Shown piece after piece: positions 6,439 to 10,184 of a stretch of 35,852 nucleotides of DNA; position 1 is the first letter of the stretch; each line of letters begins with the position of its first letter. The DNA is from a virus. Taxonomy: Duplodnaviria > Heunggongvirae > Uroviricota > Caudoviricetes. The position numbers and the translations under genes were made by a program. Under the pieces are notes generated by a model, which was not told the DNA's origin, did no database searches, and worked only from the letters and a program-made list of their open reading frames with translations. The stretch lies in IMG/VR virus record IMGVR_UViG_2778261246_000001, positions 1 through 35,852 of that record. One strand, given 5' to 3'.

Positions 6439-6915
6439 TTAAGTTCCAGTTTTTGTGATGTTCTGGCTTTTCCGTTCAGATTCTAGAGCTTTCAGATACT
6501 TACCCACTTTCATTTCCATCGCTGCTATGTAGGCGCGAACATCGTGGTCAACCCAATCTGGTTCTGTAGCATTTCCAGATAACAGGAAAGCTACAATCGC
6601 TCTTATTTCATCAGAGGCTGCTTGATAAAGGTTGTTTATATCTAAAAGTTCACTTTTTGTATCTGGATTGGTGGGGGTTGGTATGGGGTATTCGTTAAGC
6701 CCCCAATGCTCTGGACCAACAACATCAGCAAAGAAACGCCATAATTCTGGAAGTTTATCTTTACTTATGGAGCCTTTCTTAATCCAGTCATAGATTGATG
6801 GTGGTTGGACTTTGAAGTGGCGTGCGACCTCCGCCTTTGATTTGACGGATCCCGATGCGATTTTTTTGTTAATGGCCTGCTCTATCGCTCGGCCTAAGTC
6901 TTTACCACTAAGCAT
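6439..6915 (-). CDS. racR: CI-like prophage repressor RacR (158 aa)
   Basis: Intact ORF; position and orientation divergent from the cro-like ydaS; sequence matches recalled RacR (MLSGKDLGRAIEQAINKKIASG...). Confidence 0.8.
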   Translation of the reverse strand: MLSGKDLGRAIEQAINKKIASGSVKSKAEVARHFKVQPPSIYDWIKKGSISKDKLPELWRFFADVVGPEHWGLNEYPIPTPTNPDTKSELLDINNLYQAASDEIRAIVAFLLSGNATEPDWVDHDVRAYIAAMEMKVGKYLKALESERKSQNITKTGT

Positions 6916-6942
6916 TGCTTAATATTCTCCTATGCTCATTGC

Positions 6943-7011
6943 ATTAGGCAATCCCTACTCTCATTGTATTAGGCATAGCCTATTGACATTTGTATTAGGC
7001 GTCGCCTAATA
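6943..7011. promoter_or_regulatory. OR-like operator cluster between racR and ydaS
   Basis: Three related sites: ATTAGGCA (6943-6950), imperfect dyad ATTAGGCATAGCCTATTGACA (6968-6988) and perfect 9-N1-9 palindrome TATTAGGCGTCGCCTAATA (6993-7011). Confidence 0.5.
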
Positions 7012-7038
7012 TCTCTGTGTGTTTTTGGAGTTCATTCG

Positions 7039-7335
7039 ATGAAAAAAGAGAACTATTCATTCAAGCAAGCTTGTGCTGTTGTCGGTGGGCAAACAGCAAT
7101 GGCTAGGCTTTTAGGTGTATCACCTCCAAGCGTAAATCAATGGATCAAAGGGGTACGTCAATTGCCTGCCGAGAGATGTCCAGCAATTGAACGTGCAACA
7201 AGAGGTGAGGTGCTGTGCGAAGAACTTCGTCCTGATATTGACTGGTCATATTTACGACGTTCGGCATGTTGTTCGCAGAATATGTCAGTGAAGCAACTAA
7301 ATGACAGTAACAAATCCTCATTTGATCATACCTGA
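7039..7335 (+). CDS. ydaS: Cro-like HTH regulator YdaS (98 aa)
   Basis: Intact ORF divergent from racR; HTH-like segment QTAMARLLGVSPPSVNQWIKG; Rac synteny. Confidence 0.8.
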   Translation: MKKENYSFKQACAVVGGQTAMARLLGVSPPSVNQWIKGVRQLPAERCPAIERATRGEVLCEELRPDIDWSYLRRSACCSQNMSVKQLNDSNKSSFDHT

Positions 7336-7357
7336 AACATCAAGAGGCAAATGATTC

Positions 7358-7780
7358 ATGAAAATCAAGCATGAGCACATCGAATCGGTGTTGTTTGCCC
7401 TGGCAGCCGAAAAAGGGCAGGCATGGGTAGCCAATGCAATTACTGAAGAATATCTGCGCCAGGGGGGCGGCGAATTGCCCCTGGTTCCAGGCAAGGACTG
7501 GAACAATCAGCAGAATATCTATCACCGTTGGTTGAAAGGTGAAACGAATGCGCAAAGGGAAAAAATTCAGAAGCTGATCCCAGCAATTCTGGCAATCCTT
7601 CCGCGCGAGCTGCGTCACCGACTCTGCATCTTCGATACCCTGGAACGCCGTGCATTACTGGCGGCGCAGGAAGCGTTAAGTACGGCAATTGATGCGCATG
7701 ATGATGCAGTCCAAGCCGTTTACCGGAAAGCGCATTTCAGCGGCGGCGGTTCTCCTAGCGATTCTGTCGTAGTGCATTGA
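7358..7780 (+). CDS. ydaT: YdaT-like protein (140 aa)
   Basis: Intact ORF directly downstream of ydaS; Rac synteny. Confidence 0.75.
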   Translation: MKIKHEHIESVLFALAAEKGQAWVANAITEEYLRQGGGELPLVPGKDWNNQQNIYHRWLKGETNAQREKIQKLIPAILAILPRELRHRLCIFDTLERRALLAAQEALSTAIDAHDDAVQAVYRKAHFSGGGSPSDSVVVH

Positions 7781-7825
7781 TTGAAATTAATCGTACCGAA
7801 CTGTTTTGTTCGGTATCAGTTAAAT

Positions 7826-7844
7826 GTAACGCTGCGAGCGTTAC
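7826..7844. repeat. 19-bp palindrome GTAACGCT-GCG-AGCGTTAC (copy 1 of 3)
   Basis: Perfect inverted repeat read directly from the sequence, in the ydaT-ydaU intergenic region. Confidence 0.8.
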
Positions 7845-7857
7845 AAGGTGAAAACAA

Positions 7858-8647
7858 ATGGCTTCAAACTGGATAAAGCTCGAAGTTATTACGCCGGATA
7901 AGCCGGAAATATTCAGGCTTGCTGAGATTCTGAATATTGATCCAGATGCCGCATTAGGGAAAGTCATTCGCTTCTGGGCATGGGCGGATCAACAAATGAT
8001 AGACGGTAACGCAGAGTGTAACGCTCGCGGCGTTACAAAAAGTGCAATAGATCGCATCACTTTTATGGCTGGTTTTGCTGATGCGTTAATTCAGGTTGGA
8101 TGGCTGGTCGAAACTAATGGTGTGTTGTCGCTTCCTAACTTTGAGCGCCATAACGGGAAAAGCTCTAAAAAAACGGGCGGTTACAAACGAGAGAGTAACA
8201 AAAATACGAGAACTGAAACGAAAAGGTAACGCTGCCAGCGTTACAAAAACGGATCAAAAAGCGTTACCAGAGGAAGAGAAAGAGGAAGATATAAATACTT
8301 ATCTCCCCCTAAATCCCCCTCGCCAAAAACGAGCGTCTAAAAAATTCGAACCGGAGGCTATCGAGCTGCCTGACTGGTTGCCGGAAACACTCTGGCATGA
8401 GTGGGTTCAGTTCAGGCAGGCATTGCGAAAACCGATTCGAACGGAGCAGGGCGCTAACGGGGCGATACGGGAGCTGGAAAAATTCCGCCAGCAGGGTTTT
8501 TCACCTGAGCAGGTGATTCGACACAGCATCGCCAACGAATACCAGGGCTTGTTCGCGCCGAAAGGTGTTCGACCTGAGACGTTACTCCGACAGGTTAACA
8601 CCGTCTCGTTACCGGATAGTGCGATCCCGCCAGGCTTCAGGGGGTAA
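7858..8647 (+). CDS. ydaU: YdaU-like replication-region protein, reading frame split (+1) between ORFs 7858..8229 and 8090..8647
   Basis: The span is 790 nt, not a multiple of 3; the frame-1 ORF stops at 8227-8229 and the frame-2 ORF is open from 8090; an A7 run at 8167-8173 lies in the overlap. Either a frameshifted pseudogene, a sequencing error or recoding. Confidence 0.55.
8018..8036. repeat. 19-bp palindrome GTAACGCT-CGC-GGCGTTAC (copy 2, one mismatch)
   Basis: Inverted repeat inside the ydaU-like coding region; an additional half-site GGTAACGC at 8005-8012. Confidence 0.75.
8226..8244. repeat. 19-bp palindrome GTAACGCT-GCC-AGCGTTAC (copy 3)
   Basis: Perfect inverted repeat; it contains the stop codon of the first ydaU-like frame. 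Confidence 0.8.
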
Positions 8648-8653
8648 CTGACC

Positions 8654-9400
8654 ATGAAAAATATTGCGACAGGCGACGTTCTTGAACGTATCCGCAGACT
8701 GGCCCCGTCACATGTAACCGCGCCATTCAAGACGGTAGCGGAGTGGCGCGAGTGGCAACTTTCCGAAGGCCAGAAACGTTGTGAGGAGATCAACCGTCAG
8801 AATCGTCAGTTGCGGGTGGAAAAAATTCTGAATCGCTCTGGCATCCAGCCATTGCACCGCAAATGCTCGTTTTCGAATTACCAGGTGCAGAACGAAGGGC
8901 AGCGATACGCGTTGAGTCAGGCGAAATCCATCGCTGATGAACTGATGACCGGGTGTACAAATTTTGCGTTCAGCGGAAAACCTGGTACCGGGAAGAATCA
9001 CTTAGCGGCAGCTATCGGGAATCGCCTGCTGAAAGACGGTCAGACAGTGATTGTGGTTACCGTGGCTGATGTTATGAGTGCCCTCCACGCCAGCTATGAC
9101 GACGGGCAGTCAGGCGAAAAATTTTTGCGGGAACTGTGCGAAGTGGATCTGCTGGTTCTTGATGAAATTGGCATTCAGCGCGAGACGAAAAACGAGCAGG
9201 TGGTACTGCACCAGATTATTGATCGACGGACAGCGTCGATGCGTAGCGTGGGAATGCTGACAAACCTGAACTATGAGGCCATGAAAACATTGCTCGGCGA
9301 GCGGATTATGGATCGCATGACCATGAACGGCGGGCGATGGGTGAATTTTAACTGGGAGAGCTGGCGTCCGAATGTCGTCCAGCCAGGAATTGCGAAGTAA
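8654..9400 (+). CDS. ydaV: DnaC-like replicative helicase loader (AAA+ ATPase), 248 aa
   Basis: Walker [11 protein letters not shown] and Walker B LLVLDEIG motifs; position after the initiator-like gene; matches recalled YdaV. Confidence 0.8.
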
Positions 9401-9422
9401 TTTTTACCGGGAGAAAAATTTA

Positions 9423-10184
9423 ATGGAGACTGTTTTTGACGCACTGAAAGCAATGGGGAAAGCTACGTCGGTAGAACTGGCTGCGCGACTTGATATCAGT
9501 CGTGAAGAAGTGCTGAACGAGCTGTGGGAACTGAAAAAGGCTGGCTTCGTTGATAAAAGCGTATACACCTGGCGCGTGGCTGATAACAACGTTCAGCAGG
9601 AACAGCCAGAGCAGGCAGAACTGCCGGAAGAAACCACCACGGCAACAGTCGCAAAAATTTCGGAGTGCGATTTAACTGCGACGATTGAACAACGTGGCCC
9701 ACAAACGGCGGATGAACTGGCTACGTTTTTCGGCATCACATCACGCAAAGTGGCTTCAACGCTGGCAATGGCAATCAGTAAAGGTCGTCTGATTCGCGTT
9801 AATCAGAACGGTAAATTTCGTTACTGCATGCCGGGCGATAATTTACCAGCAGAGCCGAAAGCTGCATCGGTAGCGGAAACTGATGGTAAAGCCTTTCCTC
9901 AGCCAGCCGGTGTTGCGTTACCAGTACAGGAAGCGGCAACACAGGAAGATATTAAAACAGAAACTGTGGCGGACATTGTGCAGTCGCTGCCATCGTTTAC
10001 TGAAACGCAAGCGGATGACCTGGTTTTACCATCGCTGCATATGGCAAACCGCGAACTGCGTCGGGCGAAAAATCATGTCCAGAAGTGGGAGCGAGTCTGC
10101 GCCGCGCTGCGGGAGCTGAACAAGCACCGGGATATTGTCCGACAGATTGTCGATTCCTCCAGTCGTATTGTGTCGGAAAAGTGA
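9423..10184 (+). CDS. Phage protein with two winged-helix-like segments (YdaW/DUF1627-like), about 253 aa
   Basis: ORF 9372..10184; the internal ATG at 9423 is preceded by SD GGGAGA at 8-nt spacing; repeated HTH-like segments ([34 protein letters not shown]). Confidence 0.55.

Follow-up and report, generated by a model that had tools for sequence, protein, structure and literature searches.

The window, that is the whole stretch of 35,852 nucleotides that was analysed, is identical to the Rac-like prophage of Escherichia coli RM10740, in which the gene lying between ydaT and ydaV is annotated as 'hypothetical protein, frameshifted'. Three copies of a 19-bp palindrome, GTAACGCT-N3-AGCGTTAC, begin at positions 7826, 8018 and 8226, the first one in front of this gene and the other two inside it (Table 1). 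The sequence-only reading had listed these three copies at about 200 bp from one another, together with a half-site at 8005-8012. The three positions were confirmed, the copy at 8018 carrying one mismatch, and the start-to-start spacing was measured as 192 and 208 bp. The half-site was also found to be real, the heptamer GTAACGC occupying 8006-8012, and a further orphan heptamer of the same type was present at 8261-8267. Box 1 abuts the ribosome-binding site AAGGTGA (7845-7851) and is located 14 bp 5' of the ATG at 7858. The DNA of box 2 encodes a loop of sequence CNARGVTK.

Table 1. Coordinates of the putative origin features and of the genes around them (positions are those of the window, unless another locus is named).
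Feature	Position	Strand	Description
Initiator gene	7858-8647	+	Pseudogene in the window; N-terminal domain without Pfam family, linker, C-terminal domain common to K-12 YdaU
Box 1	7826-7844	.	GTAACGCTGCGAGCGTTAC, exact palindrome, GTAACGCT-GCG-AGCGTTAC; ydaT-initiator intergenic region
Orphan left half-site GTAACGC	8006-8012	+	Begins 12 bp ahead of the first base of the left arm of box 2
Box 2	8018-8036	.	GTAACGCTCGCGGCGTTAC, one mismatch; gene offset 160, coding region of the N-terminal domain
Box 3	8226-8244	.	GTAACGCTGCCAGCGTTAC, exact palindrome; gene offset 368, linker-coding region; box of the proposed origin core
Orphan right half-site AGCGTTACC	8260-8268	-	Begins 23 bp downstream of the first base of the right arm of box 3
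Purine tract AGAGGAAGAGAAAGAGGAAGA	8269-8289	+	21 nt, degenerate (GAGAA)n; encodes EEEKEED
TATAAA patch TATAAATA	8290-8297		Directly 3' of the purine tract
Candidate DNA-unwinding element	8264-8304	.	Purine tract and TATAAATA; least stable 40-bp stretch of 6900-9500
ydaV	8654-9400	+	DnaC/IstB-like AAA+ ATPase; PF01695, E = 3.9e-20
K-12 ATGTTCAAACA repeats	L003 (K-12 derivative) 2685-2695, 2719-2728, 2742-2752; weaker 2437, 2522, 2646		

When the palindrome was searched with up to three mismatches, 3 matches were obtained in the 35.8 kb, against 0.10 expected, and none of 100 shuffled sequences contained three or more. Likewise, the GTAACGC heptamer occurs 12 times in the window, for an expected number of 3.0, and eight of these 12 occurrences are gathered in the 442 bp from 7826 to 8267. 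The orphan half-site at 8006-8012 is part of a four-codon insertion (NAEC) which is specific to the Rac-like subgroup, and the orphan copy AGCGTTACC directly adjoins the purine tract.

The annotated frameshift was traced to a run of seven A residues at 8167-8173, where intact alleles have six. This +1 shift lies between box 2 and box 3, and as a consequence the open reading frame that starts at 7858 stops at a TAA (8227-8229) inside box 3. The frameshifted product of 123 residues would comprise the N-terminal domain but lack the loader-binding part. In strain PapM-32-1, the allele (L002, 2007-2795) is intact and encodes 262 residues, the difference being A6 for A7. Most of about 56 Rac-like loci encode an intact protein of 260-264 residues and, in a pattern scan of these loci, about half of which were not matched by the pattern, the A7 run was found only in RM10740 (L001). 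The extra A could be an actual decay of the gene or a homopolymer error of sequencing or assembly. Between the frameshift and box 3, two partial half-sites, GTTAC (8180-8184) and GTAAC (8195-8199), were also observed at 15 bp from each other, in a segment encoding AVTNERVTK.

The intact allele matches the PHROG 2509 family, 'replication initiation protein', with an E-value of 4.7e-88, residues 1-262 being aligned to positions 1-277 of the 277 positions of the profile. This full-length match and the DnaC/IstB-like ATPase encoded by the next gene link the locus to a replication initiator, and YdaV is presumed to be the helicase loader recruited by the C-terminal domain of this initiator. PHROG 678, 'O-like', matches residues 76-236 only, the N-terminal domain being outside the match. 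The protein gave no Pfam match even at E <= 10, a sequence-profile search of the PDB gave no match, and Foldseek against the PDB, used for fold identification, returned nothing significant. The N-terminal domain ends at about residue 105 and the common C-terminal domain begins at about residue 150; box 3, its orphan half-site and the purine/AT patch (8226-8304) fall between the parts of the gene coding for these two domains. The loop encoded by box 2 (residues 48-57) lies between helices and has a pLDDT below 50 in the AlphaFold2 model, where it appears as a tolerant spot to host a DNA signal.

The gene had been labelled 'ydaU-like', a name which could not be kept. The ydaU-ydaV module of K-12 Rac (oriJ) occupies the same place in the same type of prophage, and ydaV and the C-terminal third of the initiator (about 110 residues) are nearly identical at the two loci. 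However, DNA alignment showed that the N-terminal parts are unrelated, that of K-12 YdaU being DUF1376 (PF07120, E = 2.7e-26). Identity of the gene with K-12 ydaU was thus rejected, only the C-terminal part being common to both, and the annotation is corrected on two points: the gene is not ydaU, and it is a pseudogene in this strain. No copy of the GTAACGC palindrome is present in K-12. The comparison of the ydaT-ydaU region with K-12 does therefore give a negative answer as to the palindromes themselves, but the finding is not refuted by it, because K-12 carries a different N-terminal module. The linker-coding part of K-12 ydaU has (G)ATGTTCAAACA repeats of its own, in two direct copies and one inverted copy (Table 1), which are candidates for the repeats of oriJ, the origin of K-12 Rac.

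The comparison with K-12 also bears on the proposal that the palindromes are bound by YdaT, a CII-like regulator whose gene lies immediately 5' of them. Box 1 is found 46 bp after the ydaT stop, and a sequence resembling a YdaT box (7777-7794) lies 32 bp before box 1. Nevertheless, the ydaT gene of K-12 is nearly identical and K-12 has no such palindrome. The sites footprinted with YdaT, ATGATT/TTGATT-N6-AATCAA (PMC11879457, PMC9986795), are unlike GTAACGCT-N3-AGCGTTAC, and an exact YdaT box, ATGATTCATGAAAATCAA, occurs elsewhere, at 7351-7368, at the start of ydaT. Furthermore, the palindromes are present in phages of many hosts that have no YdaT among their annotated neighbouring genes. Binding of the boxes by YdaT is thus very improbable. 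As to the sequence at 7777-7794, it is a near-consensus YdaT box (TTGATT-N6-AATCGT) which straddles the ydaT stop and is absent from K-12 at that position. A hairpin, ACCGAAC-TGTTTT-GTTCGGT (7795-7814), follows it between ydaT and box 1; it is terminator-like on the minus strand only, and is also absent from K-12.

The first 110 or so residues of the initiator (MAGDWIK...PNFxRHNGxSAKxRA) form a widespread domain that is joined to several different C-terminal domains, and a profile search gave 2,801 clusters at 90% identity. Loci were collected from annotated phages, from 160 viral contigs and from 80 bacterial-genome loci, which include Pseudomonas, Ralstonia, Planctomycetes and Verrucomicrobia. 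A repeated exact palindrome (6-bp arms) was present in the gene region of 40 of the 58 non-redundant loci, whereas such a repeat was seen in none of 59 downstream control stretches of equal length, in 4 of 57 upstream ones and in 2 of 1,160 shuffled sequences. Far from being absent from homologous replication modules, the repeats are thus conserved in them. The in-gene boxes of the homologues are located at offsets 148-172 and 337-393, boxes 2 and 3 of the window being these two, and they are kept in place in phages of Escherichia, Klebsiella and Ralstonia. Their hosts range from E. coli to Pseudomonas, Xanthomonas, Planctomycetes and Verrucomicrobia; in Xanthomonas CP2 and Pseudomonas PAN70, the box is present with at most two mismatches. 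The consensus reads GTAACGC(T)-N3-(A)GCGTTAC, two arms of 7-8 bp around a central triplet that is free to vary. Upstream of the gene, a box of the type of box 1 was encountered at -32 to -44 (or -76/-99), and in no group but the enterobacterial Rac-like one. One and the same DNA layout is conserved throughout a large initiator family, from E. coli to Planctomycetes.

The two in-gene boxes of the relatives are 189-231 bp apart. Their distances cluster near 189, 198, 208, 218 and 230 bp (resultant 0.46), a pattern that is only suggestive of a helical phasing between boxes, the 3-nt steps of coding DNA and the kinship of the loci being confounding factors. In complete E. coli genomes, the module is present in 676 of 5,426 (about 12%). 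A search of plasmids gave only two records, both phage-like. The 41-kb circular 'plasmid' of Pusillimonas sp. T7-7 (L257, NC_015459.1, 37307-38816) corresponds to a temperate phage genome, and the only recognisable replication-initiation genes in it are one of this initiator family and that of a DnaC-like ATPase.

In the intact allele, boxes 2 and 3 encode similar peptides, and the repeat could accordingly be regarded as the by-product of a repeated peptide, NAxxVTK, or else as the effect of chance. The relatives leave practically no room for this explanation. Across lineages, the same second in-gene box is read in two frames, as xGT AAC GCx (GNAxxVT; frame 1) at 36 loci and as GTA ACG Cxx (VTxxALQK or LPR; frame 0) at 15 loci. 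At the first in-gene box, the codons themselves are constrained: in 25 loci with a GC content of at least 0.55, the Val codon is GTT in 25 cases out of 25, against 23% elsewhere in the same genes, and the Gly codon is GGT in 24 of the same 25, against 18% elsewhere. The use of two reading frames at the second box and the fixation of rare synonymous codons at the first indicate that it is the DNA which is conserved, and not the peptide. In addition, box 1 is non-coding, and the pattern was obtained in no shuffle. The earlier suggestion that the DNA of the palindromes imposes the peptide is thus correct, with the correction that the repeated NAxxVTK is confined to intact alleles, the gene of the window being frameshifted.

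Downstream of the last box, the following elements succeed one another: a run of A residues, the orphan copy of the right arm, the all-purine tract and a TA-rich (TATAAA) patch. An orphan half-site downstream of the right arm was observed in 52 of 64 non-redundant loci. Its distance to the right arm is 11 bp (34 loci), 12 bp (9 loci), 22 bp (2 loci), 23 bp (6 loci) or 35 bp (1 locus). These distances are whole helical turns, a geometry which places both sites on the same face of the DNA.

This geometry has to be weighed against another possibility, namely that the palindromes work by folding into hairpins: in RNA, for instance as an attenuator or stability element of the mRNA, or in single-stranded DNA, for instance for primosome assembly after the duplex has opened. 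A stem of 8 bp is possible at each box, dyad symmetry is maintained in the variant subfamilies, and the four half-sites of the epsilon15 type could form a two-tier stem; a simple scan also flags 8244-8226, on the minus strand, as terminator-like. On the other hand, the orphan half-sites stand at whole helical turns of duplex DNA, and what is near-invariant over about 45-65% protein identity is the sequence of the arms and not just their pairing, the centre being free. All four terminator-like matches are on the minus strand, and their number is not in excess over shuffled sequences (expected 2.0, sd 1.3); Rfam gave no match at E <= 1. Hairpin formation as the function of the boxes is therefore improbable.

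An adjacent AT-rich unwinding element, which had been named as something to look for, is present at 8264-8304 by the criterion of nearest-neighbour free energy. The value for this segment is -46.2, against a mean of -56.5 (sd 3.8) over 6900-9500. Of 48 loci of the relatives, 27 have the least stable 40-mer of about 2.8 kb beginning no more than 40 bp from where the tract starts. The AT skew is 0.54-0.62 across 8160-8300.

The location of this candidate unwinding element is of importance for the status of the boxes, which could be autoregulatory operators only: dimers of the initiator would then repress its own transcription or translation, and replication would start elsewhere. Iteron plasmids such as pPS10, pSC101 and R6K offer a precedent, Rep dimers bound to inverted repeats acting there as operators, and the place of box 1, against the ribosome-binding site and just before the ATG, would suit such a role. 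Nevertheless, the two boxes that are conserved across the family are internal to the coding sequence, at 150 and 360 bp, and only the enterobacterial subgroup has the upstream box. Moreover, the last box is joined to an orphan half-site, to the purine tract and to the least stable DNA, which are not needed for repression. Operators alone are thus an unlikely explanation of the boxes.

The purine tract is itself conserved as DNA. In the family it encodes REEKRREE, and the exact 14-mer AGAGAAGAGAAGAG is present in 49 of 82 non-redundant genes. In high-GC genomes, the Arg codon within the tract is AGA in 30 cases out of 30, against 8 of 189 elsewhere. The tract is identical across the classes of boxes, so that a class-specific reader does not explain it. 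It is conceivable, if rather doubtful, that the (GAGAA)n tract is not just a passive patch that melts easily but a family-wide sequence-specific initiation element, independent of the box class; it might be read as a single-stranded DNA repeat, or else a stable purine-RNA:DNA hybrid might be left at the tract when the gene is transcribed, for a DnaT-like, primosome-type start. Such an active role is suggested by the near base-for-base conservation of the tract over the whole range from enterobacterial phages to Planctomycetes, in spite of the codon usage of the hosts, and by its constant orientation and position, directly after the last half-site. DnaA-trio elements, found at bacterial chromosomal origins, are short tandem repeats with a period of 3 nt. 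The resemblance lies in the 3-6 copies of GAGAA directly beside the last initiator box, in fixed orientation, at the putative point of opening; however, the period is 5 nt here instead of 3, and the initiator is different. With two peptide segments and REEKRREE attributable to DNA signals, the gene family is a clear case of a non-coding function that constrains coding sequence.

Just after the AT-rich patch, TCCCCCTAAATCCCCCT (8304-8320) contains two C5 runs encoding PLNPP. Among 82 genes, 20 have a run of at least five C within 70 nt of the purine tract, the figure for random windows being 3%, and the Pro codon CCC is used near the tract at 37% versus 17%. The C-run feature is also found in K-12 ydaU.

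The half-sites differ between subfamilies (GTCCGC, GTAGACG, GTTGCGC), but within one genome all sites carry the same one. The GTCCGC-N7-GCGGAC class, with boxes at offsets 65 and about 345, comprises epsilon15, PSA-2T, RPZH6, BUCT711 and 17 of 22 further non-redundant viral loci; its first box is located at a different place of the protein, which argues against a protein-level cause. Other forms are GTAGACG-N6-CGTCTAC in Raharianne (L012), GTCAC-N9-GTGAC in a Vibrio phage, GTTGCGCT-N3-AGCGCAAC in locus L161 and CTAACG-N7-CGTTAG in locus L174. The orphan half-sites change with the class of box, clearly in the epsilon15 type and in L161, imperfectly in L012; no orphan half-site was found in L174.

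As the neighbouring genes vary from phage to phage and none of them is constant across the initiator family, the initiator itself is the only consistent candidate for reading the boxes. Two natural swaps were observed. Between the present locus and K-12, the N-terminal domain and the boxes differ, the C-terminal domain and the loader being kept. Similarly, the related Ralstonia phages YL1 and RPZH6 (L011 and L015, gene at 1501) have the flanks and the C-terminal domain in common, and their N-terminal domains differ together with the boxes, GTAACGC in one and GTCCGC in the other. The boxes are inside the swapped segment, so their co-inheritance with the N-terminal domain is partly automatic and does not by itself prove recognition. 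Class-specific residues occur at positions 9, 12, 14-17, 30-35 and 113, but none could be attributed to a contact with DNA. A point against a reading of the boxes by the N-terminal domain is the rather hydrophobic character of the putative recognition helix. With a single protein scaffold and no fewer than four or five classes of half-site, the family offers a set of natural specificity swaps and appears suited to learning how initiators read DNA and to building mutually orthogonal replicons.

On the basis of these comparisons, the palindromes are likely to be the recognition boxes of a replication origin contained within the initiator gene of this Rac-like prophage. Among the roles put forward in the sequence-only reading, that of origin or initiator-binding sites of a replication module fits all the comparative evidence. 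In the mechanism that we propose, dimers of the N-terminal domain of the initiator would bind each box, and a further subunit would sit along the same helical face, on the orphan half-site. Protein-protein contacts, with looping or wrapping of the DNA, would join boxes that are some 200 bp from one another, and this joining would strain and open the purine/AT patch (8264-8304). With its DnaT-like tail, the C-terminal domain common to K-12 YdaU would bring the DnaC-like YdaV in order to load the host DnaB. Box 1, at the ribosome-binding site, may also feed back on the expression of the initiator. The putative origin DNA of the window is intact but, with the initiator gene frameshifted, this copy is probably unable to start replication alone and would need an initiator provided in trans; the case would be different if the seventh A came from an error of assembly.

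The closest known arrangement is that of lambda. In the O protein, the N-terminal part binds DNA and the C-terminal part binds the loader P (PMC6022878). The lambda origin is likewise situated inside the initiator gene, in the linker-coding part between the DNA-binding and loader-binding regions, with an easily melted AT-rich patch on one side, and the N-terminal domain and the origin are exchanged as a module (PMC6022878). Both systems also have boxes of about 18-19 bp with a hyphenated dyad symmetry, and A runs between the sites. Nevertheless, the close likeness to the lambda repeats that had been put forward does not extend to their arrangement: lambda has four tandem repeats, whereas two or three boxes dispersed at about 190-230 bp, with orphan half-sites, are found here. 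The N-terminal domain is unrelated in sequence to that of lambda O, the role of unwinding patch would fall to a (GAGAA)n purine tract whose DNA sequence is conserved, and the loader is the DnaC-like YdaV instead of lambda P.

Repeated sites in or near the gene of their own initiator are also known for the winged-helix initiators of iteron plasmids (Rep of pPS10, pSC101 and R6K) and for G38P of the Bacillus phage SPP1, whose origin oriL is within the initiator gene. DnaA boxes were absent from 7300-9000. A literature search on the box, the purine tract, oriJ and an epsilon15 origin gave no description of the present putative origin. The features of Table 1 would thus provide a concrete origin map for a large initiator family which has no Pfam model and is present in phages of many phyla.

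Finally, a promoter scan gave nothing near box 1, the only good match being the ydaS promoter (6983-7012). Around this promoter, whose TTGACA is at 6983, three inverted repeats resembling ATTAGGC-N-GCCTAAT were observed in the racR-ydaS intergenic region (6930-7012); they are presumably RacR/YdaS operators.
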